This document shows positions 11,061 through 58,587 of a stretch of 64,000 nt of DNA, piece by piece; the first letter of the stretch is position 1; every line of letters starts with the position of its first letter. The notes beneath the pieces are model-generated. The model worked only from the letters and a program-made list of their open reading frames with translations, searched no databases and was not told the DNA's origin. Both the position numbers and the translations under genes were made by a program. Origin of the DNA: a bacterium. Its GTDB lineage: Bacteria; UBA8248. The stretch is taken from the NCBI GenBank assembly GCA_965213625.1, contig CBDBZU010000004.1:1248001-1312000 (forward strand), in the 5' to 3' direction.

Positions 11061-11358
11061 GGGGTCGTTGAAAAAGTCCACCTCGCTCGGAATTGGCCAG
11101 CGCCGTCATTCCGGCGAAAGCCGGAATCCATTGTAAAGCAGAATGACAATACGCCGGTTTTTCATCTCCTCGCCATTGACGTAAATCAATCAGAAAATAA
11201 AAAACAAAAGCAAAACAAATGGATTCCGGCTTTCGCCGGAATGACGATCAAAACCACATCGCCTTGTTGGGATAGGTCGCGACCTTTCCTATCGGACCCT
11301 CTCTCCCCGGTAGGCACCATCCGCCGAATCACGTAATCAGGACTTCTTTAACATCCCC
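11061..11358. mobile_element. MITE-like element (298 bp) with IS1182-like ends and 4-bp duplication ATTC
   Basis: Ends GGGGTCGTTGAAAAAGTCC / GGACTTCTTTAACATCCCC (15/19 inverted match); ATTC at 11057-11060 and 11359-11362; empty site forms a GCGGGG...CCCCGC hairpin. Confidence 0.7.
11104..11246. repeat. Inverted pair of palindromic repeats CGTCATTCCGGCGAAAGCCGGAATCCA with AT-rich spacer
   Basis: Unit at 11104-11130 and its reverse complement at 11220-11246. Confidence 0.85.
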
Positions 11359-11442
11359 ATTCTCCCCGCCGGTTCCATCTGTTGACCTGATTGCGGCTCT
11401 CCCGCATTATTCCCAGGGCTTGAGCGAACCTTGAGGAAATCC

Positions 11443-12522
11443 ATGACCACGGCGACGACGGCGTTCTACGAGGCGATTGAAAAGGCGGCGGCGGGCGAGC
11501 GCCTCTCTTATGAGGAAGGCCTCGCCCTGCTCGAAGGCGACGATCTCGTCGCCCTGGGCGCCGCGGCGGACGACGTGCGCGCGCGGCTGCACCCCGAGGG
11601 CTACGCCACCTATTGCGTGGACAGGAACATCAATTACACGAACGTGTGCGACGTCTACTGCACCTTCTGCGCGTTCTACCGTCCACCGGGCGATCACCCC
11701 GAAGCCTACATCCGCACGCGCGATGAGATTCGGCAGAAACTCGAAGAACTCTACGCCGTGGGAGGCCGCCAGATCCTGCTCCAGGGCGGGCACCATCCGG
11801 ACCTCCGAATCGAATGGTACGAGGAGCTCTTCTCCTGGATGAAGGGGGAATTCCCCGATCTCCACCTCCATGGTTTAAGTCCGCCCGAGATTCACCACAT
11901 CGCCCGGCTGGAGGACATGCCGTATGAAGTGGTGCTCACGCGCCTGAATGCTGCGGGCTTGGATTCCGTGCCCGGCGGCGGCGGCGAGATTCTCGTCGAC
12001 CGCGTGCGGGAGAAGATTTCGCGGCTCAAAGTCGATACGGAGGGCTGGCTCGAGGTCATGCGCGTCGCCCACAACCTGGGCATCCGCTCCAGCGCCACGA
12101 TGATGTTCGGCCACGTGGAAACCGATGCCGAGCGGGTCGAACACTTACACCGCCTGCGCGAGCTTCAGGACGAGACGGGCGGCTTCACGGCCTACATCTG
12201 CTGGACGTTCCAGAACGACGGCGCCGCGCCGCTCAAGGCGCAGACGGTGGGCAGCAGCGAATATCTCAGGATGCTGGCCATCAGCCGCCTGTATCTGGAC
12301 AACATCGCGAACTTCCAGTCCTCCTGGGTGACGCAGGGGATGAAGATAGGCGAGATATCCCTGCACTACGGCTGCAACGACATGGGTTCCACCATGCTGG
12401 AGGAAAACGTGGTGAGCGCCGCCGGCACCACCTACGCCCTGAACGAGGACGACCTCCACCGCATGGCGCGAAACGCCGGCTTCACGCCCAGGCGGCGCAA
12501 TTTCTTCTACAAATTGATCTAG
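11443..12522 (+). CDS. mqnC: Cyclic dehypoxanthinyl futalosine synthase (radical SAM)
   Basis: DRNINYTNVCDVYCTFCAF, ILLQGGHHP, SPPEI, PGGGGEIL, QSSWVTQG, GSTMLEENVVSAAG. Confidence 0.92.
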   Translation: MTTATTAFYEAIEKAAAGERLSYEEGLALLEGDDLVALGAAADDVRARLHPEGYATYCVDRNINYTNVCDVYCTFCAFYRPPGDHPEAYIRTRDEIRQKLEELYAVGGRQILLQGGHHPDLRIEWYEELFSWMKGEFPDLHLHGLSPPEIHHIARLEDMPYEVVLTRLNAAGLDSVPGGGGEILVDRVREKISRLKVDTEGWLEVMRVAHNLGIRSSATMMFGHVETDAERVEHLHRLRELQDETGGFTAYICWTFQNDGAAPLKAQTVGSSEYLRMLAISRLYLDNIANFQSSWVTQGMKIGEISLHYGCNDMGSTMLEENVVSAAGTTYALNEDDLHRMARNAGFTPRRRNFFYKLI

Positions 12523-12535
12523 TAACGCCTCTCCC

Positions 12536-14559: not shown

Positions 14560-14590
14560 ATTGTAAGAGAATCACTTTGAAGCAAGTTTC

Positions 14591-14627: not shown

Positions 14628-14646
14628 GGAGTGAGCCGCACTGGAG

Positions 14647-14852
14647 GAGGTTGTTGAAAAAGCCTTTGTCGGGGGACATCGCCTCTAGCGGGAAGGCCGC
14701 TTCCGCACGAACCTCCGACTCTCCTCGTCAGAAGCAACCCCCCCTTGTCAGGGGTCAATTCCGACCGAGGAGGGAGGAATTGCAAACCGATGCGTTTCCC
14801 GCCAATGGCTTATGCAAACGCTCGTTCCTCACTCGCGTTTGACCCCTGACAA
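14647..14852. repeat. Repeat mosaic: IS1182-like end GAGGTTGTTGAAAAAG plus an inverted pair of CCCCTTGTCAGGGG hairpins
   Basis: CCCCCCCTTGTCAGGGGTCAA (14738-14758) and TTGACCCCTGACAA (14839-14852); sub-modules recur near 16628 and 20725. Confidence 0.7.
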
Positions 14853-14925
14853 GGGGCTGTTAAAAAACCCCCTGGAAGCGATTTTGAGTTTCGCGGATGC
14901 TTTTGAATTTCACTCCCCCCTTGAG

Positions 14926-16445
14926 GGGCCTGTTGAAAAACCCCCGGTATTATGATTGGGTGTAAGGACACTATCTCGCCCGAGATGGGAGTTCCCTCGA
15001 TGATAGGCAGGAAGAGGCGCGAGCAGATGGATTTGTTCGTGGCCGGTTCGCTGGATCGGCTGATCCCCGAGGATCACGTTCTGTACCGCGTGCATGAGGT
15101 GCTGGATTTGAGTTGGCTTCGGGAGGAGGTGGCGGATTGCTATTGCGCGGACAACGGTCGTCCGGGTATCGACCCGGAGGTGGCGGTTCGCCTGATGCTG
15201 GCGGGTCTTCTGCTGGGCTACGTTCACGACCGTCGCCTGCTTCGTGAAGCGAAGGCGCATCTGGCGATCCGGTGGTTCATCGGATACGGGCTGCACGAGG
15301 AGTTGCCGGACCATTCGAGCCTGACGCGGATTCGTCAGCGTTGGGGGGAGGCTCGGTTCCGGGCGATATTCCGCCGGACGGTGCAGGCGTGCCTGGAGGC
15401 GAATGTGGCGAAGGGGGAGGTGGTTCACGTGGACGCCTCGTTGATACGCGCGGACGTGAGCTGGGATAGTCTGGCGGCGCATCATGCGGAGAAGGTGATT
15501 CGGGAGAACCCCGTGGAGGAGAAGAGCGGGAAGAAGGGCGGAGGCCGCGGCGGCGGGGGACCGGTGAGCCGGACAGACCCCGACGCGCGGCTCGCGCGCA
15601 AGAGCGCGCGGGCGAGGTTCGAGCCGAGCTACAAGCACCACGCGGCGGTGGACGATGAGCGGGGCGTGGTTCTCGACGTGACGGTGACGGAGGGGACGTT
15701 GAACGAGCGTGAGATGATGGCGTCCCATATAGAGGCGGTAAGCGAGTTGTCGGGCCGCGCGCCCTCGGTGGTGACGGCGGATTCGGGGTATGCGTACTCG
15801 AAGGTCTACGCGGCGTTGGAGCCTCTGGGCGTGGCGGGGGTGATACCGGCGAAGAAAGAACCCACGCAGAGCCGTGTTCCGTTGCGGCTGTTCCGCTACG
15901 ACGCGCGCCACGACTTGGTGAAGTGTCCGCGCGGCAAGAAGCTTCGCCCCCGGCGGAGCGAGGAGCGGGGGCGCTACTATGGTTCGAGGACGCGTGATTG
16001 CGCGGGCTGCGCGCTCCGGGCGGATTGTCTGCCGCAGGCGCGGTCGAGCAAGGAGGTTTTGATTCCCAACGCGTATCTGGCGCTGTTGCGCGCGCGCCGG
16101 CGGCATGCGCGTTGGGGGGAGGAGGAGCGCCGGCTGTGGCGCCGGCACATGGGGCGCTCGGAGGGTTATCACGGGGAAGCGAAGAGTTGGCACGGACTGG
16201 GGCGGGCGGTGCGTCGGGGCCTTGCGAACATGAAGATTCAGTCCTACCTGACGGCGACTGCGGTGAACCTCAAGCGGCTGGCCGCCGCTTTTGCGGCGCG
16301 TATATTCGCCCTCTGGAGGGCCTACGCCGCCCGGAGACGCCGTCTGCGCGTTCATCGCGCCCTCGCGCGCTGATTGGGATCCCTCCCCGCCGCCGCGTGA
16401 ACCGCCAGAACACCCGCTTCAAAAAAGGGGTTTTTCAACAGACCC
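14926..16445 (+). mobile_element. IS1182-family insertion sequence, copy 1 (1520 bp), 5-bp duplication TTGAG
   Basis: TIRs GGGCCTGTTGAAAAACCCC / GGGGTTTTTCAACAGACCC; TTGAG at 14921-14925 and 16446-16450. Confidence 0.92.
15000..16373 (+). CDS. IS1182-family DDE transposase
   Basis: LIPEDHVL, GRPGIDP, PDHSSLTRIRQR, VDASLIRA, ADSGY, Cys-rich insertion, SEGYHGEAK; alternative start 14952. Confidence 0.93.
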   Translation: MIGRKRREQMDLFVAGSLDRLIPEDHVLYRVHEVLDLSWLREEVADCYCADNGRPGIDPEVAVRLMLAGLLLGYVHDRRLLREAKAHLAIRWFIGYGLHEELPDHSSLTRIRQRWGEARFRAIFRRTVQACLEANVAKGEVVHVDASLIRADVSWDSLAAHHAEKVIRENPVEEKSGKKGGGRGGGGPVSRTDPDARLARKSARARFEPSYKHHAAVDDERGVVLDVTVTEGTLNEREMMASHIEAVSELSGRAPSVVTADSGYAYSKVYAALEPLGVAGVIPAKKEPTQSRVPLRLFRYDARHDLVKCPRGKKLRPRRSEERGRYYGSRTRDCAGCALRADCLPQARSSKEVLIPNAYLALLRARRRHARWGEEERRLWRRHMGRSEGYHGEAKSWHGLGRAVRRGLANMKIQSYLTATAVNLKRLAAAFAARIFALWRAYAARRRRLRVHRALAR

Positions 16446-16712
16446 TTGAGGGGGAGTCAGTGAACTGAGGGCGCAAGCCCGAAAGTGAACAGGTGGGGGG
16501 TATAATTCGGAATGGCAATAAAACGCATTTTACCCCCCACCGAATCGGCCTTCGCACAAACCGCTCGGCCTCTTCGACTCCCCCTCAAGGGGGGAGTGAA
16601 TTGCTCTCTCGTTAGTTGGAAAAACCTGCAAACGCTCGCTCCTCACTCGCGGTTGACCCTCAAGAGGGGAGTGAAATTCAGCGCTCCTTCTGTAGGCTAT
16701 TTCAGCAACCCT
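16446..16712. repeat. Inverted pair of CTCCCCCCTTGAGGGGGAG hairpin units with spacer, plus degenerate MITE end
   Basis: Hairpins at 14911/16446 and 16577-16598; spacer is the reverse complement of 30225-30349; end GGCTATTTCAGCAACCCT. Confidence 0.8.
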
Positions 16713-18452: not shown

Positions 18453-18684
18453 GGCTCGTGGATAAGATGTGGACAAGGTGTGAATTGATGACTCCCTCCA
18501 GGAAAAGCCAATCCACTCCCCCCTTGAGAGTTCTTGCTGTCCGACGAGAGAGCAATTCACTCCCCCCTTGAGGGGGAGTCGAAGAGATAAGGGCGCAAGC
18601 CCGCAAGCGAGTCGGTGGGGGGAGTGAACTTCAAAGGCGTTCGCGCAATGCAAATTCGCTTGCCGGAGGTTTTTCAACAACCCT
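18453..18684. repeat. MITE arm in reverse orientation with CTCCCCCCTTGAGGGGGAG hairpins
   Basis: Reverse complement matches 14853-14920 and 30126-30190, and the downstream GAATTGCTCTCTCG flank at 16598-16611. Confidence 0.75.
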
Positions 18685-19315: not shown

Positions 19316-19446
19316 CAGAAGCTCCTTTCCGCCGGGTTGAATCTGCACCACCAAAGTCTCCCGAAAAATGACACCATTGCGCATACGGCGCAAGAGTTTC
19401 TCCGTCCCCGCTTTTCGGGTGCGCGCTCGTTCTCTAAAATGAACGT

Positions 19447-20682
19447 ATGGATGAGACGAGCGAAAAACCCAAGCCGAACGACTGGAAAGCGCAAATCGAG
19501 CAAGAGTTGCGCGAACTCACGGAAGCCAACCTGCGCCGGGGTCTTCGCACCGTCGAGGGGATGCAGGGCCCCACAATGCGCCACGGGGGCAGGACCCTCA
19601 TCAACCTCTCGAGCAACAACTATCTGGGCCTCGCCAATTATTCCGCCATCATCGAGGCGTCCGTGGAGGCGGCAAGGGCCGCAGGCGCGAGCGGGGCCGC
19701 CTCCCCGCTCATCTCGGGCCACATGGCCGCCCACGAGGAGTTGGCGCGCGCATTGGCCGCCTTCAAGCGAAAGGACGCCGCGCTCGTTTTCGGTTCGGGG
19801 TTTCTGGCGAACGTGGGATTGATCACCGCCCTGGCCGGTGAGGGAGACGCCGTTTTCAGCGACGCGCTCAACCACGCAAGCATCGTGGACGGCTGCCGGC
19901 TGTCGAGGGCGCGTGTCCACGTTTACCCCCACGCGAATCTCAACCGCCTGGAAGACGCCTTGAGAAATGATTCCCGGGCGCGCCGCAAGCTCATCGTGAC
20001 GGACGGCGTCTTCAGCATGGACGGCGATCTGGCGCCGCTGTCCGGAATCTGCGACCTCGCGGATAAATATGGCGCGATTCTCGTGGTGGACGACGCGCAC
20101 GGCACGGGCGTCATCGGGGAGGGCGGCAGGGGGAGCGGCGCTTATTTCGGTGTGGAGGAGTGCGTTTCGGTCTCCATGGGCACGCTGGGCAAGGCACTGG
20201 CCTCTTACGGCGCGTTCGCGTGTGCGGATACCGAAGTAATCGATTACCTCGTCAACAAGGCGCGGCCCTATATCTACTCGACGAGTTTGCCGCCCGCCGT
20301 GGCCGCCGCCTCCCGCGCCGCCGTCCGGGTCGTGGAAAGCGACGAGGGTGAGCGCCGCCGGGAGAATCTGGCGAACCTGTGCGCGCGCTTTCGCGCCGGG
20401 CTTCGCTACATTGGGGTGCGCGTGAGTGAGCCACCGCCGGGGGCAGAGATTCCGATTTTCCCCATCATCATCAAGGATACGGAAAAAACGCTCGCGCTCG
20501 CGGAGTATCTGATGGAGGCGGGCGTCTACCTGCTCGCCATCCGCCCGCCCACGGTGCCCGAGGGCACCAGCAGGCTCAGGGCCACCCTCATGGCGACGCA
20601 CACCGAAGCGCAGATCGACCGGACGCTCGACGCCCTGGTATCGGGACTCAAGAAGCTCGCTATCCTCCCCGGCCCCGACTGA
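19447..20682 (+). CDS. bioF: 8-amino-7-oxononanoate synthase
   Basis: SSNNYLGLA, SGFLANVG, LNHASIVDG, DGVFSMDGD, DDAHG, GTLGKA, AIRPPTVPEG. Confidence 0.9.
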   Translation: MDETSEKPKPNDWKAQIEQELRELTEANLRRGLRTVEGMQGPTMRHGGRTLINLSSNNYLGLANYSAIIEASVEAARAAGASGAASPLISGHMAAHEELARALAAFKRKDAALVFGSGFLANVGLITALAGEGDAVFSDALNHASIVDGCRLSRARVHVYPHANLNRLEDALRNDSRARRKLIVTDGVFSMDGDLAPLSGICDLADKYGAILVVDDAHGTGVIGEGGRGSGAYFGVEECVSVSMGTLGKALASYGAFACADTEVIDYLVNKARPYIYSTSLPPAVAAASRAAVRVVESDEGERRRENLANLCARFRAGLRYIGVRVSEPPPGAEIPIFPIIIKDTEKTLALAEYLMEAGVYLLAIRPPTVPEGTSRLRATLMATHTEAQIDRTLDALVSGLKKLAILPGPD

Positions 20683-20923
20683 CGGAGCCGTTGAAAAATC
20701 CGGTTTCGGGAATAGGCGCCTTTGAGGCAATTCCTCCATTCTTAGTCGGAACTAACCTCATCGGTCGCGTCAAACCCTCGTCCCGTCTGGCGGCGGATTT
20801 CCCCCAACACCCCTCCTCGACTGGAAAAGCAACCCCCCCTACCCCCCCTTGTCAGGGGGGCAAGAAAAAGCAAAGCTCCCTCTGCCCGGCGGGGGCGCAT
20901 CGCCTTTTTTACCCCCCTGACAA

Positions 20924-22443
20924 GGGTCTGTTGAAAAACCCGGTGTTGGAAGCGGGCGTTTTGGCGGCTCACGCGGCGGCGGAGAGGCAGCCCAATCGGC
21001 GCGTGAGGGCGCCATGTGTGCGCAGACGGCGTCTCCAGGCGGCACAGACCCTCCAGAGGGCGAATAAACGCGCCGCAAAAGCGGCGGCCAGCCGCTTGAG
21101 GTTCACCGCTATCGCCGTCAGGTAGGACTGGATCCTCATGTTCGCAAGGCCCCGGCGCACCGCCCGCCCCAGTCCGTGCCAACTCTTCGCTTCGCCGTGG
21201 TAGCCCTCCGAGCGCCAACGGTGGCGGTCGTAGAGCCGCTTCTCCTCCTCCCCCCATCGCAAATGGCGACGACGCGCGCGCAACAGCGCCGGATACGCGT
21301 TGGGAATCAACACCGCCTTGCTCGTTTGCGACTTCGACAGACAATCGGACCTGAGCGCGCAGCCCGCGCAATCCCGCGTCTTCGATACATAGGAGCGCCC
21401 CCGCTCCGTCGCCTGCCGGGGACGCAGCGTCTTGCCTCCCGGACACTTCACCACCTCGTTGCGCGCATCGTAGTGGAACAACTGCAGCGGAACACGGCTC
21501 TGGCTGGGTTCCTTCTTCGCTGGTATCAGCGCTTCCACGCCCCGCCGCTCCAATTCGCCATAAACCTTCGAGTACGCGTAGCCCGAATCCGCCGTCACCA
21601 TCTCCGGCGCGCGGCCCGACAACTCGCTTACCGCCTCTATATGGGACGCCATCATCTCACGCTCGTTCCGCGTCCCCTCCGTCACCGACACGTCGAGAAC
21701 AACACCCCGCTCATCGTCCACCGCCGCGTGCTGCTTGTAGCTCGGCTCGAACCCCGCCCGCGCGCTCTTGCGCGCAAGCCGCGCGTCCGGGTCCGTCCGG
21801 CTCACCCGACCCCCGCCACCGCGGCCTCCTCCCTTCTTCTCCCCCTCATCATCGACGGGATTCTCCCGAATCACCTTCTCCGCGTGGTGCGCCGCCAGAC
21901 TCTCCCAGCTCACGTCCGCGCGTATCAACGAGGCGTCCACGTGTACCACTTCCCCCTTCGCCACATTCGCCTCCAGGCAAGCCTGCACCGTGCGACGGAA
22001 TATCTCCTTGAACCGAGCCTCCCCCCACCGCTGACGAATCCGCGTCAGGCTCGAATGATGCGGCAAATCCTCGTGCAGCCCGTACCCGATGAACCACCGG
22101 ATCGCCAGGTGCGCACGCGCCTCGCGAAGCAGACGCCGGTCGTGTACGTAGCCCAGCAACATACCCGCCAGCATCAGGCGCAACGCCACCTCCGGGTCGA
22201 TCCCCGGTCGACCGTTATCCGCGCAATAGCAATCCGCCACCTCCGCGCGAAGCCAACTCAAATCCAGTACGCGGTCCACGCGCATCAGGACGTGATCCTC
22301 GGGGATCAACCGTTCCAGCGAACCGGCCACGAACAAATCCATCTGCTCGCGCCCCTTGCTGCCTATCATCTCGGGAACTCCCATCTCGGGCGAGATAGTG
22401 TCATTACACCCAATCACAATGCCGGGGGTTTTTCAACAGCCCC
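20924..22443 (-). mobile_element. IS1182-family insertion sequence, copy 2 (1520 bp), 5-bp duplication GACAA
   Basis: Ends GGGTCTGTTGAAAAACCC / GGGTTTTTCAACAGCCCC; GACAA at 20919-20923 and 22444-22448. Confidence 0.93.
20969..22369 (-). CDS. IS1182-family DDE transposase
   Basis: Paralog of 15000-16373; near-identical to 56971-58371. Confidence 0.93.
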   Translation of the reverse strand: MIGSKGREQMDLFVAGSLERLIPEDHVLMRVDRVLDLSWLRAEVADCYCADNGRPGIDPEVALRLMLAGMLLGYVHDRRLLREARAHLAIRWFIGYGLHEDLPHHSSLTRIRQRWGEARFKEIFRRTVQACLEANVAKGEVVHVDASLIRADVSWESLAAHHAEKVIRENPVDDEGEKKGGGRGGGGRVSRTDPDARLARKSARAGFEPSYKQHAAVDDERGVVLDVSVTEGTRNEREMMASHIEAVSELSGRAPEMVTADSGYAYSKVYGELERRGVEALIPAKKEPSQSRVPLQLFHYDARNEVVKCPGGKTLRPRQATERGRSYVSKTRDCAGCALRSDCLSKSQTSKAVLIPNAYPALLRARRRHLRWGEEEKRLYDRHRWRSEGYHGEAKSWHGLGRAVRRGLANMRIQSYLTAIAVNLKRLAAAFAARLFALWRVCAAWRRRLRTHGALTRRLGCLSAAA

Positions 22444-22628
22444 GACAAGGGGGGGTAGGGGGGGTTGACTTCATGGGGTTTTCTTTCAAAGGGGGTTGCC
22501 TTTACCCTCTCAGGGGTTTTTTTAACAAGCCCGCATTGGTCGCGATTGACACTCGATACGGCGCGCAAGCACGCCTACTCGGGATGAGGGAGGGGCGGGG
22601 GTTTTTCAACAACCCCCTGACTCCCGGC

Positions 22629-23633
22629 CTAGTCGATTTCCACGATCACGTTGCCCACCGCCTCACCCGCTTCCACGGCTTCGTGTGCGTTTGCGAGTTC
22701 ATCGAGCGGGAAACGCTCCGCGATATGGTGTGTAAGCGCGCCGTCATCAAGAGCGCGGGTGATGTCCCCCGCCGCGTGGAGCAAAGCCTCCGGCGGGCAG
22801 CAGTGGACCATAACGAGTCTGACGGTGATGTTGTTCAGCATGAGTTCGTAGTGGGGAAAGGGAGGGGTGCGGTCCCCCATCGAGGAATAAGAGGCGATGA
22901 CGCCGCCGACCTTCAGGATTTTGTAGTTCGTCTCCCAGTTCACCCCTAAATTCACGTCCACCACGCGGTCCACGCCCGCGCCGTCCGTGATCGCAAGTAC
23001 CCTTTCGGCAACGTCTTCTTCGAGGTAGTTGATGATGTGCTCAGCGGAAGACGCACGCTCCGCCTTGGCGTCCGAGCTCACCGTGGCGATCACGCGCGCT
23101 CCCGCCCACCTGGCCAGTTGCACGGCGTAGACGCCCACGCGGCCCGCGCCGCCCGTCACCAGCACCGCCTTGCCCGCAATGGGGCCGTCCGCGTACAGGC
23201 ATCGATGCGCCGTCATGGCGGGAATGCCGAGGCACGCCCCTTCTGCGAAGGTGGTTCCCTCCGGCAGGCGGACGAGAAACTTCTCGGGCAGGCAGACGTA
23301 TTGCGCCGAGGTGCCGAACGCGCGTTTGTAGCGCGCGTTGTAGACCCATACGCGGTCGCCGATTTCATGCCCGCTCGCGCCAGGGCCGAGTTTGTCCACG
23401 ACGCCCGCACCGTCGTTGTGGGGGATTGTCCTCGGGAAATCGGGAAAGTGCTCGAAATAGCCCCAGTCCTCGGACCCATGGCCGCCGCGGCGCTTGCAGT
23501 CCGTGGGATTCACGCCCGACGCGTGGAGCCGCACCCTGATTTCGCCTGCGCCGGGTTCGGGCGTCGCCATCTCGCCGGTTTCGATGACCTCGCGCGCCCC
23601 GCCCTTGCGCTCGTACCAGCCTGCCCGCATCAC
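22629..23633 (-). CDS. NADPH:quinone reductase (zeta-crystallin-like MDR)
   Basis: SGVNPTD, PHNDGAG, ACLGIPAMTAH, VTGGAGRVG. Confidence 0.9.
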   Translation of the reverse strand: MMRAGWYERKGGAREVIETGEMATPEPGAGEIRVRLHASGVNPTDCKRRGGHGSEDWGYFEHFPDFPRTIPHNDGAGVVDKLGPGASGHEIGDRVWVYNARYKRAFGTSAQYVCLPEKFLVRLPEGTTFAEGACLGIPAMTAHRCLYADGPIAGKAVLVTGGAGRVGVYAVQLARWAGARVIATVSSDAKAERASSAEHIINYLEEDVAERVLAITDGAGVDRVVDVNLGVNWETNYKILKVGGVIASYSSMGDRTPPFPHYELMLNNITVRLVMVHCCPPEALLHAAGDITRALDDGALTHHIAERFPLDELANAHEAVEAGEAVGNVIVEID

Positions 23634-23654
23634 TTGCGCTCTCCTTTGCCCGCC

Positions 23655-24083
23655 TTACCCGTGGGTGACCGAAACGCCCAGGTAGACGACGATGAGGGCG
23701 AGGATGAGGTTAATGAGGAGCCAGGTCTTGCGCTGCGCCTTCATGCCCCCGAAGCCCTTCGGGATGGTGAGCGCGACGCCTATGAAGATGATGACGAGCG
23801 CCAGGACGATCTTTACGATCAGCGACCCCGGAATGGCGAGGCCGCTCCGCACGAGGCGGGTGAGGTGGTGAAACCCCGTCAGTATCAGGATCAGGAACGA
23901 ACCGTGGAGAATCGGGATGAACCGTTTCTGGATTTTCGCCATGAACGGCCCCCGCTCCGCTTCGGGCAGGTCCGCCGCCGTGGGTATGACCACGAAACGG
24001 AGAAAGGCCACGCCGCCGACCGCCAGAATCGCGCTCAGCACATGAAGGGTCGTGATGATGATGTTTCCCGTGCTGTATCCCAT
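23655..24083 (-). CDS. Small 4-TM membrane protein (CopD-like)
   Basis: LHVLSAILAVGG, ILTG, KIVL helical pattern. Confidence 0.6.
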   Translation of the reverse strand: MGYSTGNIIITTLHVLSAILAVGGVAFLRFVVIPTAADLPEAERGPFMAKIQKRFIPILHGSFLILILTGFHHLTRLVRSGLAIPGSLIVKIVLALVIIFIGVALTIPKGFGGMKAQRKTWLLINLILALIVVYLGVSVTHG

Positions 24084-24119
24084 AAGACGCACTCCCGTGG
24101 ATGATGAGTAAATATTTGC

Positions 24120-25337
24120 TTAAGCCGTGTCCTCTCCCAGCAGAACGAGGACGCCGGAATACTGGTGGAGGTGATCGATTTTCCCGATGGGCGCGATCTC
24201 GGAACCTGTAAAAAACCCCGCGACGGGCAGACCGCGCATCTTCTCACGGATCGCCATGGCGTCCACCTCCATCTCCCCGTAGAGGGAACTGCCACGGCCC
24301 GCGCAGTTGAAATAAAGGCCGAAAGCGCGCGCGTCCACTTCTTCTGTGGCGGCGAAGCGCCGGGATCCTTTTTCCAGCATTGTGCGGAGGTCCTCACGCG
24401 CGCGCGACCCGTCCCGTTTGGCGAAGGTGATGGCCTGGCCGGTTTTGACCGGTGTCGGCAGCGCGATGATTCCCTTCTCTTCATCTGCGCCCACGATGGG
24501 CCGCACGATGTACTCGCCGTGGTCGAGCATCACCTTGTCCGGATCCCCCGGAATGCCGATGAACAGGTTCATGGCGGCGAACTGGATGTTCTCCATCCAC
24601 TCGGGACCCGCCGCCTCGGCGAAGGCGTCATACGCGCGTTCGCCCGAAATTTCCCAGACGACGTTCTCCTCCGCCCGGGTGATGAGCCTGGGCTCGCCCA
24701 CGGGCAGATAGGCCTGCGATATCCCGATGAACCGCCTGGGCGCGCCCGCGAATACGACGCCCGAGACGGCGTTTGTCTGCATCTGACCGTCCATGAACTG
24801 AAATGTTCTCCCCGCCGACCCGTCCTCCGCGGCGCCGCCGCCCACGATGATGGCCTCCTCACCCAACTCCTCGTGGATTCCCTCGAAAAGCGCGTCGGCC
24901 TGGAGGTGATAGCTGTCGGGCATGACGACGACCAGGGGTGGATTCTCGTGAGAGAGCGCGTCTCCCAGCTCTTTTTTCGCCGCCCGGCCGATGGCGCGTC
25001 CGCATTCCAGTGGCGCGTCGCCAAGGCCTTCGACCAGAAATGGCGCTGCGGGCGGGGCGTCGCCGACCACCAGAACCGAGATTCCCGGCGTCCGTTCGAT
25101 TTCGCCCTGCGCCGTCAAGACGCCGAAGCCCGTGCAGCCGACGACCCTTGCGCCGCTCGTCCCCTCGGCGACTGCGGCGACCACCTCGGGCCATCTGCTC
25201 AGGTGGCCCGGCGTCGTGAACAGGAAAATGAGGGAGGCGGCGTCGAGCTTCGCCTCCGCCATGGCCTCTTCTATCGCTTCGCGCGCGGCAACGGCGGAAT
25301 CGGGATTGGAGGAGAGGCCGCTCCCCGCGCGCGTCAT
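24120..25337 (-). CDS. FIST N/C-domain protein
   Basis: VVGCTGFGV, GGGAA, YIVRPIVG, LYFNCAGRG, GFFTGSEIAP. Confidence 0.9.
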   Translation of the reverse strand: MTRAGSGLSSNPDSAVAAREAIEEAMAEAKLDAASLIFLFTTPGHLSRWPEVVAAVAEGTSGARVVGCTGFGVLTAQGEIERTPGISVLVVGDAPPAAPFLVEGLGDAPLECGRAIGRAAKKELGDALSHENPPLVVVMPDSYHLQADALFEGIHEELGEEAIIVGGGAAEDGSAGRTFQFMDGQMQTNAVSGVVFAGAPRRFIGISQAYLPVGEPRLITRAEENVVWEISGERAYDAFAEAAGPEWMENIQFAAMNLFIGIPGDPDKVMLDHGEYIVRPIVGADEEKGIIALPTPVKTGQAITFAKRDGSRAREDLRTMLEKGSRRFAATEEVDARAFGLYFNCAGRGSSLYGEMEVDAMAIREKMRGLPVAGFFTGSEIAPIGKIDHLHQYSGVLVLLGEDTA

Positions 25338-26029
25338 GGAGTTTCCTCGCGCGTAAGGGCGCCCGGCGGCCCGTTCGTGAGGAGTCTCGGTTCGCTCACC
25401 GCCTGCACGTCATCGGCAGTGAGGCCTTCGGCCACTTCCCTGAGGAAGGGGCCTTCCGGCGTGAACTCGATGAACGCGATGTCGGTGAACAGCTTGGTGA
25501 CCACCCGCCGCGCGGTCAGGGGATAGGTGCAATCTTCCAGGAGCTTCAGGCCGCCGTCCTTCATGGTGTGGGTCATGATGGCGTAGACCTCGCGTGCGCC
25601 CGCCGCCAGGTCCATTGCGCCGCCGATGCCGCCTTTGCCCAGTCCCGGCACCGTCCAGTTGGCGAGGTCGCCCTGGGCCGAGACCTGCAGCGCGCCCATG
25701 ATGGCGATGTCGATGTGGCCGCCGCGTATCATGGCGAAGGCGTCGGCGTGTCCGAACACGGACGCCCCCGGTAGCGTGGTGATGGGTTCACGCGAAGCGT
25801 TGATGTAGTCCTTGTCCTCTTCGCCGGGCTCGGGCCTCGGGCCCGCGCCGATGATTCCGTTCTCGGCCATGAACAGCACGCCGCGCCCGGTTTCCACGTA
25901 ATTGCCTACCAGCGTGGGGATGCCGATGCCTAAGTTCACCACCGCGCCGTCGGGCAGTTCCGCCGCCACGCGCCGGGCGATGTCGACCGGCTTGAGGGCG
26001 CAGTTCTCAAGTTTCTGATCGGAGGCCAA
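25334..26029 (-). CDS. 3-oxoacid CoA-transferase subunit B
   Basis: VNLGIGIPT, AENG, FAMIRGGHID, GDLANW, GGAMDL. Confidence 0.93.
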   Translation of the reverse strand: MASDQKLENCALKPVDIARRVAAELPDGAVVNLGIGIPTLVGNYVETGRGVLFMAENGIIGAGPRPEPGEEDKDYINASREPITTLPGASVFGHADAFAMIRGGHIDIAIMGALQVSAQGDLANWTVPGLGKGGIGGAMDLAAGAREVYAIMTHTMKDGGLKLLEDCTYPLTARRVVTKLFTDIAFIEFTPEGPFLREVAEGLTADDVQAVSEPRLLTNGPPGALTREETP

Positions 26030-26696
26030 GGTCTTCTCCTCTTACGACTCTTTGCACGTATATCGAAGGCGTGTGTACGCTTTCGGGCGCGATGACGCCG
26101 GGGTCCACGATTTCCTCCACCTCGACGATGGTGAGCGGCGCCGCCGTCGCCATGACGGGGTTGAAGTTCGCCGCCGTGCCCCGGTAGGTGAGGTTTCCCG
26201 CGCTGTCGGCCCGATGCGCCTTGATGACGGCCACGTCGCCGGGTAGGGGATGTTCGAGCACGGTTTCGCGCCCGTTGATCGTGCGTGTCTCCTTGCCCTC
26301 GGCTGCCTGCGTGCCGACGCCGGTGGGCGTGTAGAAGGCGGCGATGCCTGCGCCCGCCGCCCGGATTCTCTCGGCCATAGTCCCCTGGGGGAGCTGTTCG
26401 AGTTCGATTTTTCCCTCGAGAAAGAGTTCTCTGAACACGAACGCGCTCCTGTGGAAGGCGTAGCTGCAGATGATTTTCCGCACCTTCCCCTGTCTGAGCA
26501 GAACGGCGAGGCCGCGCTCGCCGAAGCCCGCGTGGTTGGTGACGACGGTCAGATCACGCGCGGGATGATCCGCCATGGCGACCAGGAGATTTTCCGGGAT
26601 GCCCGCGCCGCCGAACCCGCCCAGCAGAATGGTGGCGCCGTCGGGAATATCGGCGATGGCGGCTTTGGATGATGGATACACCTTATCGGAGGTCAA
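26007..26696 (-). CDS. 3-oxoacid CoA-transferase subunit A
   Basis: LGGFGGAGIPENL, PQGTMAERIRAAGAGIAAFYTPTG, NFNPVMA. Confidence 0.93.
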   Translation of the reverse strand: MTSDKVYPSSKAAIADIPDGATILLGGFGGAGIPENLLVAMADHPARDLTVVTNHAGFGERGLAVLLRQGKVRKIICSYAFHRSAFVFRELFLEGKIELEQLPQGTMAERIRAAGAGIAAFYTPTGVGTQAAEGKETRTINGRETVLEHPLPGDVAVIKAHRADSAGNLTYRGTAANFNPVMATAAPLTIVEVEEIVDPGVIAPESVHTPSIYVQRVVRGEDLGLRSET

Positions 26697-26924
26697 TTCG
26701 TCGTTCTCTTTGTTGAGGGAAAATCCATACAGCTTGGTTCCGTGCGAATTTCAATCTATTTATGAGGCATCGACCCGAAAAAATCCAGGCGGACCCAAGG
26801 CTTGCCTCAGGCCTTTCAGTGCCATAGAGTGCGGATTCATTTTTGCAGGGCGCGTTTTCATTTTTTCGAGGAGTGCGTTGTGGCGAGGCAGCCCAGGCGA
26901 GTGCCGGAAACGGAAACGAAGAAC

Positions 26925-28460
26925 ATGGCGGGCCTCTATCTCTATTTCTCGGTCTTTCTCTCGGGCGGCTCGATTCTCGTTATGGAGATCGCGGCGGGGC
27001 GCGTGCTCGCCCCCCATTTCGGCAACACGCTCTACACGTGGACCTCGATGATCGGCATCATCCTGGCCGCGCTGAGCCTTGGTTATTCCATCGGTGGGCG
27101 GCTCGCGGACCGCAAGCCGTCTACGAAACTGTTCTTCCTGCTCATGCTGGGCGGCGCGGGCCTCGTTGCCCTGGTGCCGGCCCTGCGGGGGATTCTGCTG
27201 CCCACGATGGAAGAGAGCCTGGGCCTGCGCTCCGGGCCGGTGTTCGCCGGTCTTCTGCTCTTCGCCGCACCGGGTTGCGTGCTCGCCACGCTCACGCCCT
27301 TCGCGGTAAAGCTCGCGGCGCGGGGAGTGGGAAGCCTGGGAGCAGTGACGGGAAACCTCTTTACCTGGTCCACGGTCGGGAGCATCCTCGGCACGTTCGC
27401 GACGGGTTTCGTCTTCATTCCCTTTTTCGGGCTGAACGGCATCTTCCTGACGACGGCGGGGGCGCTGGCGCTGACGGCGCTCTTCGGGCTCTACCTCAGC
27501 GGCGACCTCGCCAGTTTGTTCTCGAAGCGAAACGCGCGGGCGAACCTGCTTCTCGGAGCGTTCGTGCTCGCCTCGATGGGGACGGGCGCCGCGTGGCTGG
27601 GCGTCATCCCCGGCGTGGATAAAGATACTATTTGGGTGCGCGAGAACATGTACCACATGATTCGCGTGTTCGAGAGGGCCGGGGACGACGGCGGGCGGGT
27701 GCGCGAGATGTACCTGGATCATCAGCCCGAGGGGGCGATGGTCCTGGGCGACGACAAAAAATTTTACTACGAATACACCCGCTTTCTGGAGTTGGGGCCG
27801 CTGTTCGCACCCCACATGAAGCGCGCGATCTTCATCGGCGGCGGCGCTTTCACGATGCCGAAGGCCCTGCAACTCATGAAGCCGGAGATGTCCATCGCCG
27901 TGGCCGAACTCGACGAGGAAGTCGTCGACGCGGGGAGTAAATTTTTCAGGCTGGCGAAATTCCCGAAGCTGAAGGCCCTGGTGGGAGACGGCAGGCGCAT
28001 TCTCCGCTCATCCGGTGAAAAATTCGATCTTATCGTAGGCGACGCATACCGGGGTTTAAGGAACATACCGCCGCATCTGGTCACGAAAGAGTTTTTCGAG
28101 GAAGCGCGCGAACGACTGGCGTCCGGCGGCGTGTTCATGCTGAACCTGATCGGCTACCGCGCGGGCGCCGGCGGCGCAATATACGCATCCGTCTACCGGA
28201 CGATGAAAAGCGTGTTTCCGGAAATATACATCTACAGTACCGACCCTGCGAATCCCTATGTAGCGCAGAACATCCTTATTTTCGGGTTCCGGGACGAGGA
28301 CGCAGGTCGTTTTCGTCGCGTAAGCGAGGCGATGCGCCGCGATTCCAAGTTCGAGTTCGCCGCGCGCGCGCGCGTGGCGCCCCCGGGCTCGCGCCTTTAC
28401 GGCCCGGTATTGACGGACGACTATAATCCTGTGGAATATCTCATCGAAAAAGGACTTTAA
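26925..28460 (+). CDS. Fused MFS-like membrane / spermidine-synthase-like methyltransferase
   Basis: EIAAGRVLAPHFGNT, TM helices, then IGGGAF, ELDEEV, GDGR, LTDDYNPVE. Confidence 0.88.
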   Translation: MAGLYLYFSVFLSGGSILVMEIAAGRVLAPHFGNTLYTWTSMIGIILAALSLGYSIGGRLADRKPSTKLFFLLMLGGAGLVALVPALRGILLPTMEESLGLRSGPVFAGLLLFAAPGCVLATLTPFAVKLAARGVGSLGAVTGNLFTWSTVGSILGTFATGFVFIPFFGLNGIFLTTAGALALTALFGLYLSGDLASLFSKRNARANLLLGAFVLASMGTGAAWLGVIPGVDKDTIWVRENMYHMIRVFERAGDDGGRVREMYLDHQPEGAMVLGDDKKFYYEYTRFLELGPLFAPHMKRAIFIGGGAFTMPKALQLMKPEMSIAVAELDEEVVDAGSKFFRLAKFPKLKALVGDGRRILRSSGEKFDLIVGDAYRGLRNIPPHLVTKEFFEEARERLASGGVFMLNLIGYRAGAGGAIYASVYRTMKSVFPEIYIYSTDPANPYVAQNILIFGFRDEDAGRFRRVSEAMRRDSKFEFAARARVAPPGSRLYGPVLTDDYNPVEYLIEKGL

Positions 28461-28521
28461 TTCTTCGCGGCGGGGATGAGCGTTACGTACCTGCCGCGCA
28501 CGGAGTCATGAAGGAGAAGCA

Positions 28522-29583: not shown

Positions 29584-29600
29584 CCTGAAGGAGCGGTTCG

Positions 29601-30125
29601 ATGTCCATCGTCACGCGAAGGGGAGACGATGGGAACACCGATTTATGGTTCGCGGACAGGGTTCCCAAGTATCATCCCCAGGTGCAGGCCTACGGCGCGC
29701 TCGACGAGGCGAAGGCCGCGCTCGGCCTCGCCCGCTCGACGGCGCCTGAATGGCTGAAGCCCGAAATCCTCAAAATCCAGAAAGACCTCTACCTCGTGAG
29801 CAGCGACCTGGCGACACTGCGGGGCAAACTCGGCAGGCTCAAGGAGCGCGTGGGTGCGGAGCAGGTCGCATGGGCCGACGCGCAGGTGGCGCGCTATGAA
29901 AAAGAGATCCAAATCACCGACTGGGTCATCTCGGGCGATTCGCCCTGCGGCGCCGCGCTGGATATGGCGCTCACCATCATCCGCCGGGGCGAGAGATGGT
30001 CGGTCAAGCTGCGGGACGAGGGCTACATCGACAACCCCGACCTGCTCGTCTACCTGAACCGCGTCTCGGACCTCCTCTTCCTCATGGCCCGCGCCGTGGA
30101 CCGGGGGGTGGAAGTGCCCGAGTAG
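29601..30125 (+). CDS. pduO: PduO-type ATP:cob(I)alamin adenosyltransferase
   Basis: IVTRRGDDG.T, YGALDE, RRGER, YLNRVSDLLF. Confidence 0.88.
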   Translation: MSIVTRRGDDGNTDLWFADRVPKYHPQVQAYGALDEAKAALGLARSTAPEWLKPEILKIQKDLYLVSSDLATLRGKLGRLKERVGAEQVAWADAQVARYEKEIQITDWVISGDSPCGAALDMALTIIRRGERWSVKLRDEGYIDNPDLLVYLNRVSDLLFLMARAVDRGVEVPE

Positions 30126-30467
30126 GGGGTTGTTGAAAAGACCCGTGGAGCGATTTTAATTGCGCGCACGCTTTTGAAGTTCACTCCCCCCTTGAGGGTC
30201 GGTCTCCCTCGGGGAAGACCGACGATGAAGCCGAGCGGTTTTTTCGAAGGCTGAATCGGTGGGGGGTAAAATGCGTTTTATTGCCATTCCGAATTATACC
30301 CCCCACCAGTTCACTTTCGGGCTTACGCCCTCAGTTCACTGACTCCCCCTCAAGGGGGGAGTGGTTCTCTTCTCTCTCGTTTGTTGGCGATGATGTTCAA
30401 GGGCGAAGTCCGCAACTGCACTGGCGGGGGGTAAATTCCGAGTTTGAAAAACTTTTTCAACAGCCCC
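30126..30467. mobile_element. MITE-like element (342 bp) with IS1182-like ends and paired C6-TTGA-G5 hairpins
   Basis: Ends GGGGTTGTTGAAAAG / CTTTTTCAACAGCCCC; flanks CCGAGTAG / CCGAGTGG; homologous to 14853-16620 minus the IS. Confidence 0.75.
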
Positions 30468-30512
30468 CCGAGTGGTGGTTCACGCCATTCGCCAGGAACG
30501 TCCAGGGAAAAC

Positions 30513-53055: not shown

Positions 53056-53059
53056 GGTC

Positions 53060-55914: not shown

Positions 55915-56784
55915 ATGGACTGGGTGACGCTCGCCGTCATTGCGGCTCTCGCGCAGGTGCTCAGAAACGCGGCGATGAAATCCATCGGCCACAAGCTGGA
56001 CGAGTACATCAACGTGCTGGGGCGGTTCGCTTTCCTGCTCCCCTTCGCGGCCGTGGCGGTGTGGATGAGGGGGGTGCCCGAGATACAGCCCGGCTTCTGG
56101 TGGTTTTGCGTCCTCTTCGGCTTCCTGCAAACCTCGGCCACGCTCGCGCTCTCGAAGGCGCTCCTGTACGGCTCGATGGGCGTGGTGACCTCGCTGTGGA
56201 AGCTCGCGACCATCTGGCTGGTGGTGCTCGCTTTCATCACGCTGGGCGAGGCGCCCTCGGCCTGGGGGCTCGTGGGTATCTTTGTCACCCTGGCGGGCGT
56301 CTACGGGCTGAACGTCTCGCGCGCGCGAATCGGCTGGTTCGAGCCTGTCCGCGCCATATTCACCGACAAGGGAATGCGCTACACCGTGCTCGCCTCGCTT
56401 TTCTACGCGCCCTCGGTGATTACCTTCAAGCAGGCGGCGGTGCTCTCAGACGCCACTTTCGGCACGCTCATTACCTATGCGGCGGCATCGCTCGTCGTGT
56501 TGCCGCTGACCCTGTGGAAATCCGCCGAGCACTTCAAGAGCGCGCCCAGGCTCTGGAAAGGCTTCGTATCCCTGGGGCTTTTCGCTTTCATCACGAGCTT
56601 GGCCCAGGCGGAGGCCTACCGTCTCACGCTCACCTCATACGTGGAATCGGTGAAACAGGTGGAGATACTCCTGGCCATCGGCATCGGCTACGTCTTCTTC
56701 AAGGAGCGCGACCGCGTGCGCGAAACGCTGCTGGGAGGCGTGGTGATTCTGGCCGGAATCGTTCTTCTGATTTTGGCGGGGTGA
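55915..56784 (+). CDS. EamA/DMT family transporter
   Basis: Two EamA-like halves with hydrophobic helices, ITLGE, YVESVKQ, FFKE. Confidence 0.85.
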   Translation: MDWVTLAVIAALAQVLRNAAMKSIGHKLDEYINVLGRFAFLLPFAAVAVWMRGVPEIQPGFWWFCVLFGFLQTSATLALSKALLYGSMGVVTSLWKLATIWLVVLAFITLGEAPSAWGLVGIFVTLAGVYGLNVSRARIGWFEPVRAIFTDKGMRYTVLASLFYAPSVITFKQAAVLSDATFGTLITYAAASLVVLPLTLWKSAEHFKSAPRLWKGFVSLGLFAFITSLAQAEAYRLTLTSYVESVKQVEILLAIGIGYVFFKERDRVRETLLGGVVILAGIVLLILAG

Positions 56785-56925
56785 GATTCGAGCGAGAAGC
56801 GAGAATTTCCCGACTGAAGAAGGAGAAATTCAGCCTTCGTTCCAGGGACTCGGTTTCTGCGACAACTCCTCCTTCTTCAGTTGAAGTAGACCCTCAAGGG
56901 GTTGTTGAAAAAGCCCCCCCTTGTC

Positions 56926-58445
56926 GGGTCTGTTGAAAAACCCGGTGTTGGAAGCGGGCGTTTTGGCGGCTCACGCGGCGGCGGAGAGGCAGTCCAATCG
57001 GCGCGTGAGGGCGCCATGTGTGCGCAGACGGCGTCTCCAGGCGGCACAGGCCGTCCAGAGGGCGAATAAACGCGCCGCAAAAGCGGCGGCCAGCCGCTTG
57101 AGGTTCACCGCTATCGCCGTCAGGTAGGACTGGATCCTCATGTTCGCAAGGCCCCGGCGCACCGCCCGCCCCAGTCCGTGCCGGCTCTTCGCCTCGCCGT
57201 GGTAGCCCTCCGAGCGCCAACGGTGGCGGTCGTAGAGCCGCTTCTCCTCCTCCCCCCATCGCAAATGGCGACGACGCGCGCGCAACAGCGCCGGATACGC
57301 GTTGGGAATCAACACCGCCTTGCTCGTTTGCGACTTCGACAGACAATCGGACCTGAGCGCGCAGCCCGCGCAATCCCGCGTCTTCGATACATAGGAGCGC
57401 CCCCGCTCCGTCGCCTGCCGGGGACGCAGCGTCTTGCCTCCCGGACACTTCACCACCTCGTTGCGCGCATCGTAGTGGAACAACTGCAGCGGAACACGGC
57501 TCTGGCTGGGTTCCTTCTTCGCTGGTATCAGCGCTTCCACGCCCCGCCGCTCCAATTCGCCATAAACCTTCGAGTACGCGTAGCCCGAATCCGCCGTCAC
57601 CATCTCCGGCGCGCGGCCCGACAACTCGCTTACCGCCTCTATATGGGACGCCATCATCTCACGCTCGTTCCGCGTCCCCTCCGTCACCGACACGTCGAGA
57701 ACAACACCCCGCTCATCGTCCACCGCCGCGTGCTGCTTGTAGCTCGGCTCGAACCCCGCCCGCGCGCTCTTGCGCGCAAGCCGCGCGTCCGGGTCCGTCC
57801 GGCTCACCCGACCCCCGCCACCGCGGCCTCCTCCCTTCTTCTCCCCCTCATCATCGACGGGATTCTCCCGAATCACCTTCTCCGCGTGGTGCGCCGCCAG
57901 ACTCTCCCAGCTCACGTCCGCGCGTATCAACGAGGCGTCCACGTGCACCACTTCCCCCTTCGCCACATTCGCCTCCAGGCAAGCCTGCACCGTGCGACGG
58001 AATATCTCCTTGAACCGAGCCTCCCCCCACCGCTGACGAATCCGCGTCAGGCTCGAATGATGCGGCAAATCCTCGTGCAGCCCGTACCCGATGAACCACC
58101 GGATCGCCAGGTGCGCACGCGCCTCGCGAAGCAGACGCCGGTCGTGTACGTAGCCCAGCAACATACCCGCCAGCATCAGGCGCAACGCCACCTCCGGGTC
58201 GATCCCCGGTCGACCGTTATCCGCGCAATAGCAATCCGCCACCTCCGCGCGAAGCCAACTCAAATCCAGTACGTGGTCCACGCGCATCAGGACGTGATCC
58301 TCGGGGATCAACCGTTCCAGCGAACCGGCCACGAACAAATCCATCTGCTCGCGCCCCTTGCTGCCTATCATCGAGGGAACTCCCATCTCGGGCGAGATAG
58401 TGTCCTTACACCCAATCACAATGCCGGGGGTTTTTCAACAGCCCC
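56926..58445 (-). mobile_element. IS1182-family insertion sequence, copy 3 (1520 bp), 5-bp duplication TTGTC
   Basis: Same TIRs as copy 2; TTGTC at 56921-56925 and 58446-58450. Confidence 0.93.
56971..58371 (-). CDS. IS1182-family DDE transposase
   Basis: Near-identical to copy 2. Confidence 0.93.
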   Translation of the reverse strand: MIGSKGREQMDLFVAGSLERLIPEDHVLMRVDHVLDLSWLRAEVADCYCADNGRPGIDPEVALRLMLAGMLLGYVHDRRLLREARAHLAIRWFIGYGLHEDLPHHSSLTRIRQRWGEARFKEIFRRTVQACLEANVAKGEVVHVDASLIRADVSWESLAAHHAEKVIRENPVDDEGEKKGGGRGGGGRVSRTDPDARLARKSARAGFEPSYKQHAAVDDERGVVLDVSVTEGTRNEREMMASHIEAVSELSGRAPEMVTADSGYAYSKVYGELERRGVEALIPAKKEPSQSRVPLQLFHYDARNEVVKCPGGKTLRPRQATERGRSYVSKTRDCAGCALRSDCLSKSQTSKAVLIPNAYPALLRARRRHLRWGEEEKRLYDRHRWRSEGYHGEAKSRHGLGRAVRRGLANMRIQSYLTAIAVNLKRLAAAFAARLFALWTACAAWRRRLRTHGALTRRLDCLSAAA

Positions 58446-58587
58446 TTGTCAGGGGGGTAAAAGCGATTCGCCCCGCCGAGGAGGTTATTCAACAACCTCC
58501 AAGGGGGGAGTGATTTTGAGGCGGCGCTTTGGGTTTCCTTCCTCATTGGTCGGTTTTTCTGTTCTGCTTCCGGTGGGTGTGTTTCCC

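Follow-up and report, generated by a model that had tools for sequence, protein, structure and literature searches.

Palindromic targets are on record for some insertion sequences (ISs) of the IS1182 family, a point stated in passages of PMC4923244 and PMC5678879, both of which cite a review for it. In the same passages, the staphylococcal members of the family, IS1272 and TnSha1, insert into hairpins, delete or replace the stem-loop and leave no duplication, and IS1272 shows no preference for the primary sequence of its target. The cruciform model presented in PMC5678879 includes a route, pathway c, in which the two loops are attacked at their 5′ side and the loop alone is duplicated. A passage of PMC11578231 describes a miniature inverted-repeat transposable element (MITE) of the IS1182 family, MITEPye1 of Paracoccus yeei, which has 18-bp terminal inverted repeats (TIRs) and 4-bp repeats; a chromosome contains 1-3 copies of it, and its movement is presumed to occur in trans. 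Targeting of repetitive extragenic palindromes (REPs) is described, in a passage of PMC1525189, for ISPpu9, ISPpu10, ISPa11, ISRm19, ISRm22 and ISPsy8. Here we describe a 1520-bp IS of the IS1182 family, the short non-coding elements that have its ends, and the hairpins into which it inserts. They were found in a window of 64,000 nucleotides (the whole stretch of DNA that was analysed, positions 1248001-1312000 of contig C4 of the genome under study, G000) and were followed through the genome and its genus.

Compared with IS1272 and TnSha1 as those passages present them, the IS of G000 belongs to the same transposase family and also inserts into hairpins. It differs in that it keeps the hairpin halves and duplicates the loop (27 of 32 copies), at targets made of a C-run and a G-run, whereas IS1272 deletes the hairpin; the present IS behaves as in pathway c. 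The short elements resemble MITEPye1, in the features given for it, by being short and non-coding, by sharing the type of their TIRs with an IS1182-family IS of their own species, and by the short direct repeats that some of them have, whereas the large number of ends (hundreds), the many arm families, the targeting of hairpins and the deep nesting belong to G000. With the REP-targeting ISs, the IS shares a specialisation on a repeated extragenic palindrome, but the REPs in the passage of PMC1525189 are host repeats without IS ends, whereas the hairpins of G000 lie mostly inside elements with IS termini. The two families of target hairpins, H1 and H2, form inverted doublets. REPINs, which go with RAYT transposases, are likewise inverted hairpin doublets with a spacer, and they have a GTAG head; H1 and H2 have no such head, and the one RAYT-like gene found in G000 lies beside other palindromes. 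A literature search on IS1182 MITEs, MITEs of sponge symbionts and nested MITE targets in bacteria, which did not extend to supplementary files, found nothing on this genus or on MITEs that carry the target of their own IS. A first-pass annotation of the window had seen here its best candidate for an undescribed system. The elements are neither a dedicated nor an undescribed system: insertion of IS1182 members into hairpins and MITEs of IS1182 type have both been published, and the cargo of the elements is unspecific; there is no new class of system here.

We consider it likely, with a probability of about 0.7, that G000 harbours a hairpin-seeking IS1182-family IS together with a mixed population of MITEs that have only their 19-bp termini in common, and that the nesting of these elements is a by-product of hairpin targeting and palindrome-rich MITEs and not a selected system. 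The genome has a size of 4.15 Mb and a G+C content of 59%. Genome-wide counts refer to contig C4, which accounts for 4.134 of the 4.149 Mb; three small contigs make up the remaining 14.6 kb. Comparisons within the genus cover 23 related genomes, namely G000 and 22 congeners (labelled G001, G003 and so on).

The autonomous element is an IS of 1520 bp with a single transposase open reading frame (ORF) between short TIRs, and its ends are GGGTCTGTTGAAAAACCC and GGGGCTGTTGAAAAACCCC. On C4, blastn detected 32 full-length copies, one partial copy of 1141 bp (C4:3441690) and three short matches; matches to the IS beyond the TIR were confined to three loci (C4:241528, 298757 and 298795-298884). The transposases of the three copies in the window are 473-482 aa long, match NF033551 of NCBIfam (IS1182-family transposase) with 346.8, 361.8 and 359.2 bits (cut-off 270), and contain the Pfam domains DUF772, DDE_Tnp_1 and DDE_Tnp_1_6. 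Six copies make up an 88% subfamily, and the others form a group at 95-100%. A tblastn search of C4 for other IS1182-type genes found nothing outside the IS copies except three short fragments. In contigs of four public runs, word depth was ~1,400-6,700 in bins inside the IS (20948-22495) and ~45-170 in the flanks, an excess consistent with about thirty IS copies. For positions 19400-31000 of the window, the contigs of the four runs that hold the genome contained no joint skipping the IS or a MITE; rare variants drop out of contigs, so this result is uninformative on empty-site alleles, and the four joints that were listed there have sides of just 20-24 letters, in repeats. In all six copies of the 88% subfamily, the stretch that matches the transposase includes one TGA. 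The 473-aa ORF of the window copy stops at 16373 and the match continues to 16397, eight codons further; the TGA shortens the C-terminus, and the gene need not be dead.

Inspection of the flanks located most of the 32 IS copies in one of two palindromes, H1 (ACTCCCCC-CTCAA-GGGGGAGT) or H2 (ACCCCCCC-TGACAA-GGGGGGGT). The target hairpin has a stem of C5-6, a loop of 4-6 nt and a stem of G5-6, and the loop (~5 nt) is duplicated on insertion. When all IS copies were removed in silico, 22 of the 32 sites lay in a C5-N3-6-G5 hairpin. The reconstructed 35-nt targets had a mean folding energy of -8.1 kcal/mol, versus -3.4 for 2000 random 35-mers (5th percentile -7.6). None of the 32 copies was inserted in another palindrome family, and almost all of the targets had C-run/G-run stems. 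A direct duplication of 5-7 bp was present at 27 of the 32 copies (a border shift of one base being allowed), with both hairpin halves retained. The bases at the borders make its length ambiguous: the element opens with GGG and closes with CCC, and the loop of the target is preceded by C and followed by G. Three insertions outside repeats (TGTAA, GCCTT and GACGA), as well as the MITE called B below (CTGAC), indicate a true length of 5 bp. No direct duplication was found in the other five copies (C4:589109, 2942654, 3560914, 3600955 and 957673). In four of these the second copy of the loop is inverted (CTCAA[IS]TTGAG or vice versa), and recombination between IS copies would explain this arrangement. 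As read from the flanks, each insertion of the IS remakes two weaker hairpins at its own junctions. Among the five youngest copies (at least 99.3% identity), three are in H2, one has no more than half an H2, at its right flank, and one is in non-repeat DNA, while almost all copies at 95-98% and in the 88% subfamily are in H1. This may be a shift of target preference, or chance.

The degenerate end motif reported by the first-pass annotation is real. With at most two mismatches, GGGGYTGTTGAAAAA matched 17 times in the window against a mean of 0.14 in 100 shuffles, none of which reached 17; six of the 17 matches are the ends of the three 1520-bp IS copies. C4 contains 396 matches, 65 in IS copies and 331 outside. 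The consensus of 160 short-element ends, GGGG(T/C)TGTTGAAAAA(G/C)(C/T)CC, equals the right end of the IS over 19 bp, in agreement with the suggestion that the short elements have the ends of an IS1182 IS. A position weight matrix (PWM; score at least 12) found 539 ends, versus 41 in the reversed sequence. These ends are paired genome-wide: the two ends are at most 400 bp apart in 74 of 102 adjacent +/- (convergent) pairs, versus 6 of 102 adjacent -/+ (divergent) pairs. Stack pairing assigned the ends to 32 ISs, 120 other pairs and ~235 solo ends, and in 103 of the 120 pairs the net length is 60 bp or more. Pair lengths range from 67 to 782 bp, and the short elements are ~80-540 bp long and non-coding. 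Duplications at strict borders were more frequent than chance, the opposite of what the annotation had named as an argument against itself: their length is 4 bp or more in 11 of the 103 pairs (1.26 expected) and 5 bp or more in 6 pairs (0.64 expected), and neither count was reached in any of 300 shuffles. In addition, the outer flank consists of CCCC plus 3-7 nt at 73 of 475 non-IS ends, versus 4.8% of control GGGG sites, a pattern as of hairpin-loop insertion.

The population of short elements is a mosaic one. The largest family of whole elements has 11 members and 51 pairs are singletons. Arms, taken as the terminus plus ~80 nt, form families of 31, 23, 21, 18, 13, 11 and fewer members; 200 arms belong to no family. 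At C4:298757-298884, two left ends of the IS (with 100% and 95.6% identity to it) stand in inverted order and make up a 128-bp piece. This piece sits between half an H2 and half an H1 hairpin, within a larger pair, and its structure suggests either a fresh rearrangement product or a nascent MITE.

The target hairpins are associated with the inner side of these ends. The genome freed of IS copies has 176 C5-N3-6-G5 hairpins, versus 19 in the reversed control, and 45 of them lie inside the 103 pairs, which span 0.64% of the sequence. An inward-facing end was found at most 300 bp from 110 of the 176 hairpins, versus 2.6% of random positions, and the end nearest to a hairpin was inward-facing in 157 cases and outward-facing in 19. 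Within some arm families the hairpin occurs at a fixed offset from the arm tip, for example at ~61 nt in 11 of 21 arms, at 45 nt in 7 of 13 and at 43 nt in 6 of 7. H1 is inside pairs in 29 of 94 cases and H2 in 9 of 26, with inward:outward counts of 101:9 and 30:1, respectively; both form inverted doublets ~139 bp apart, some of them without TIR arms. Fifteen of the 32 IS copies are inside pairs, and hairpins inside pairs are occupied by the IS more often (13/45) than those outside (9/131; Fisher's exact test: p = 3.6e-4, odds ratio 5.5).

The interiors of the elements are mosaics of palindromes, as the first-pass annotation had described, with at least five families where it had counted four. 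One RAYT-like Y1 transposase ORF of 177 aa was found at C4 ~1978566-1979099 on the minus strand (L124 1453-1986). Its match to Pfam PF01797 (Y1_Tnp) is weak, 22.3 bits, or 27.5 bits with its frame neighbours, at a cut-off of 23. The ORF is flanked by GGACAGGC...GCCTGTCC and GGGTCGCATATATGCGACCC palindromes of GTAG type, not by H1 or H2. The GTAG-type REP families beside this ORF also fill many MITE interiors; these palindromes are ordinary REPs.

The elements of the window are listed below. The pair at 14853..16712 with the third IS, and the ends at 14647 and at 18670, the latter in the arm at 18500..18684, were missing from the first-pass annotation.

11061..11358: MITE-like element A (298 bp), bounded by GGGGTCGTTGAAAAAGTCC and GGACTTCTTTAACATCCCC, with a long GTCATTCCGGC...GCCGGAATGAC palindrome as its interior; ATTC at 11057-11060 and 11359-11362.
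14647-14661: a further TIR-like end.
14853..16712: MITE-like pair, net 335 bp, with an H1 hairpin doublet and an IS in the loop of the left hairpin.
14926..16445, plus strand: IS1182-family IS of the 88% subfamily, ORF 14952-16373, in the loop of CACTCCCCCC-TTGA-GGGGGAGTC; CTTGAG duplicated; NF033551 346.8 bits.
18500..18684, minus strand: partial H1-bearing arm that ends in a TIR (18666-18684) and adjoins half an H2 hairpin (GACAAGGAGGGGGTAGGGGGG).
20684..22616: MITE B with a nested IS; CTGAC at 20679-20683 and 22617-22621, holding the bioF stop; H2 doublet inside; TIR-like end at 22518-22532.
20924..22443, minus strand: IS1182-family IS of the youngest subfamily, ORF 20969-22417; two other copies are 99.9% identical; its target is the loop of ACCCCCC-TGACAA-GGGGGGGT, with GACAA(G) duplicated at 20919-20923 and 22444-22448.
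30126..30467: MITE C, 342 bp, built as TIR, arm, H1 hairpin doublet, arm, TIR; duplicated flanks at 30118-30125 (CCGAGTAG) and 30468-30475 (CCGAGTGG), the former giving the TAG stop of a PduO-type gene.
56898..58499: mini-MITE D, net 77 bp, inserted into an H1-type hairpin loop (GACCCTCAA before it, CAAGGGGGGAGTG after it); its own H2 hairpin is struck by an IS.
56926..58445, minus strand: IS1182-family IS, ORF 56971-58419, 99.3% identical to the copy at 20924; TTGTC duplicated at 56921-56925 and 58446-58450.

The duplications at A, B, C and D are 4, 5, 8 (imperfect) and 3 bp long. At D, the flanking duplication noted in the first-pass annotation stands and its length does not, since CAA is most likely what remains of a 5-bp CTCAA. 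Two of the elements abut stop codons, as had been noticed. The genes were identified as bioF (TIGR00858, 445.5 bits; cut-off 426.45) and a PduO-type adenosyltransferase gene (TIGR00636, 132.5 bits; cut-off 108.45), and each stop lies within the duplication. No Rfam family reached its gathering score in positions 10000-60000 of the window.

Comparison with congeners indicated that the four elements on which the first-pass annotation was built are insertions: the sites of B, C and D are empty in some relatives, and that of A probably is in one. At locus B, the element is absent from eight congeners (G004, G008, G006, G010, G014, G017, G018 and G032). G004 and G008 have a single copy of the duplication, CTGAT, and read ...CTGATTC(C/T)C(G/C)GCCTAATCG, where G000 has CTGAC[element]CTGACTCCCGGCCTAGTCG; in the six others (G006, G010, G014, G017, G018 and G032) the end of bioF differs. 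The identical 312-bp MITE occurs in G003, flanked on either side by CTGAC, with its H2 palindrome intact and free of the IS; G005 keeps the left part. The MITE of G003 and the single-copy sites together show that the MITE brought the hairpin to a hairpin-less site and that the IS landed later. In five other genomes, a different TIR element has inserted at a point 18 bp upstream.

At locus D, an intact and unoccupied CCCTCAAGGGGG hairpin was found in G004, G006, G008, G011 and G032. In G000, the loop of this hairpin contains the 77-bp mini-element and the H2 loop of the mini-element contains the IS. The intact hairpin in five relatives shows that the three-deep nesting claimed for 56.9-58.5 kb is real. 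In G008, the H1 doublet at this locus has no TIR arms.

Locus C is empty in G001, G004, G008 and G010, which have a spacer of 27-47 bp. The right-hand CCGAGTGG of G000 aligns with the gene end in G004, and the imperfect 8-bp duplication is therefore real. A TIR follows directly after the same stop in G003, G005, G017 and G018 and after a TGA stop in G016; these five genomes hold three interiors unlike that of G000, which makes four interiors in all. G002, G012 and G013 have insertions of 2.1-2.2 kb that are not the IS1182 element and are flanked by a direct repeat (75-165 bp) of the 3′ end of the PduO-type gene.

At locus A, G014 contains another TIR element with the same borders (CGATTC on the left, GTTCTCCCCG on the right), and its right terminus shares the odd AAGAAG with G000. 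Its interior is unrelated to that of G000 and consists of an H1 doublet whose loop holds another, nested MITE. The locus is probably empty in G015, to judge from a single CTTC. In 13 of 17 congeners examined for this region (window 10996-11431), a membrane-protein gene lies 3′ of an alpha/beta hydrolase gene. G000, G014 and G015 lack this gene and G008 has a truncated one, and the MITE-bearing spacer of G000 is at this deletion. At the orthologous sites A and C, the borders and the duplication are thus the same between species and the interiors unrelated. Possible explanations are nesting followed by deletion between like termini, replacement of a stem-loop, and repeated use of a hot spot.

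Across the genus, the exact end motif has 31-413 copies in 17 of the 23 genomes and none in six. H1 has 17-193 copies in the 17 motif-bearing genomes and 0-1 in the six motif-free ones, and the counts of the end motif and H1 among the 17 genomes are correlated (Spearman's rho 0.65). The transposase was found in 14 of the 23 genomes, including none of the six motif-free genomes. The GTAG-type palindrome GACCTGTCCCTAC, used as a genus-wide control, was found in one of five motif-free genomes searched (G007, 9 matches) and is a weak control.

These results suggest the following course of events. The DDE transposase would bind the 19-bp termini, in cis on the IS and in trans on the short elements, and would recognise the hairpin either as a structure or as a C-run/G-run sequence. 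As the flanks show, the element joins into the loop of a C-stem/G-stem hairpin, with duplication of the loop. The target hairpins belong to the same repeat population, on the inner side of the termini, and new copies of the IS and of MITEs land in older MITEs and nest. A hairpin-bearing MITE would carry a landing pad to each new place as a passive consequence, and a side effect would be that insertions are steered to non-coding DNA. The idea of the first-pass annotation that MITEs spread landing pads for the IS is borne out in part: the order of MITE, hairpin and then IS was seen at B and D, and nearly half of the IS copies lie in pairs, but all palindrome families, and not the target hairpins in particular, are cargo.

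Several observations weigh against this reading. No inward-facing end lies within 300 bp of 66 of the 176 hairpins, and hairpin doublets therefore exist also without MITE ends. Among the 11 pairs that have a clean duplication (at least 4 bp), one contains a strong hairpin, versus 31 of the 92 others (Fisher's exact test: p = 0.17). Hairpins being rare in such pairs, unit transposition of a hairpin-bearing MITE has direct support at B and C only. Other palindromes are also found inside pairs (REP-A 17/114, REP-B 9/37 and P5 12/33), and their nearest ends likewise face inward more often than outward (69:25, 32:6 and 32:3, respectively). No duplication of any length is present at the strict borders of 65 of the 103 pairs, and in the 11-member family of whole elements the arms differ and one member only has a duplication. 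The co-occurrence of ends, H1 and transposase across the genus may reflect a single ancestral gain. Finally, a by-eye impression that several arm families resemble the left or right end of the IS beyond the terminus was discarded after a shuffle test, in which the median z was at most 1.4 in all 14 main families. As the arm families are not significantly IS-like past the 19-bp terminus, the elements share termini only.

A more elaborate version, to which we give some but clearly lesser credence, is a self-reinforcing nesting community, in which the transposase, in line with an occupancy of 13/45 inside pairs versus 9/131 outside, would prefer hairpins by its own termini, the target would mimic abutted ends and residents would be replaced from within. 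A newcomer would land in the hairpin of a resident, and deletion between like termini or replacement of the stem-loop would leave the old borders around a new interior. Identical borders with unrelated interiors, as between G000 and G014 at A and among the four interiors at C, would follow from such turnover.

It is rather unlikely that the hairpins are an independent host family of REP-like repeats, older than the IS and moved by other means, whose link to the MITEs comes from the pooling of junk in intergenic spaces; the IS would then be just another of the REP-targeting ISs. The hairpins distant from any inward end would be expected of such a family, and so would the doublets of H1 and H2 ~139 bp apart, which resemble REPINs, and the G008 doublet at D without TIR arms. 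Other palindromes also co-cluster with the ends, and REPs are known IS targets in the cited passage of PMC1525189. Mere co-clustering, however, leaves the inward bias of 157:19 and the fixed arm offsets unexplained; moreover, the six motif-free congeners have 0-1 copies of H1, and the only RAYT-like gene found is beside GTAG-type palindromes, not beside H1 or H2.

The first-pass annotation had inferred a self-seeding target system, and in its strong form the MITE-borne hairpins would be selected as safe sites that raise the copy number of the IS and the MITEs. That the elements contain hairpins and that the IS lands there has been confirmed, and the event order at B and D, the 15 IS copies inside pairs and the more frequent hits on hairpins inside pairs (odds ratio 5.5) all speak for selection, as does the likeness of the target, CCCC-N5-GGGG, to the element's own abutted ends and the remaking of two weaker hairpins upon insertion. 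We nevertheless regard this version as very improbable, for the cargo is not specific to target hairpins, MITEs that look recently moved are mostly hairpin-less (one in 11 pairs with clean duplications has a hairpin), no sign of selection was seen, and passive hairpin targeting gives the same outcome. About as improbable is the view, raised by the annotation itself, that the TIR-like ends are scattered remnants of decayed full-length ISs and not short transposing units: the ~235 solo ends, the many pairs without a duplication, the partial IS at C4:3441690 (1141 bp) and the double left end at C4:298757-298884 would fit it, but the pairs are convergent and 100-540 bp long, tblastn on C4 found no transposase remnants beyond the IS copies save three short fragments, recurring arm families of 6-31 members are unrelated to the IS interior, duplications exceed chance, and B, C and D differ between species as presence or absence of whole elements.

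The 32 IS insertions and the hundreds of MITE ends make up a natural data set on target choice in the IS1182 family. Duplication of the loop instead of deletion of the hairpin, which for IS1272 is only drawn as a possible pathway, can be followed in it. The elements also explain the mosaic intergenic repeats of the whole genus, and the stop codons of bioF and the PduO-type gene, which lie within insertion duplications, are a warning for annotation. A hairpin-seeking element and its palindrome-rich offshoots can keep most insertions within their own debris, and this confinement may help a 4-Mb genome to tolerate dozens of active copies.

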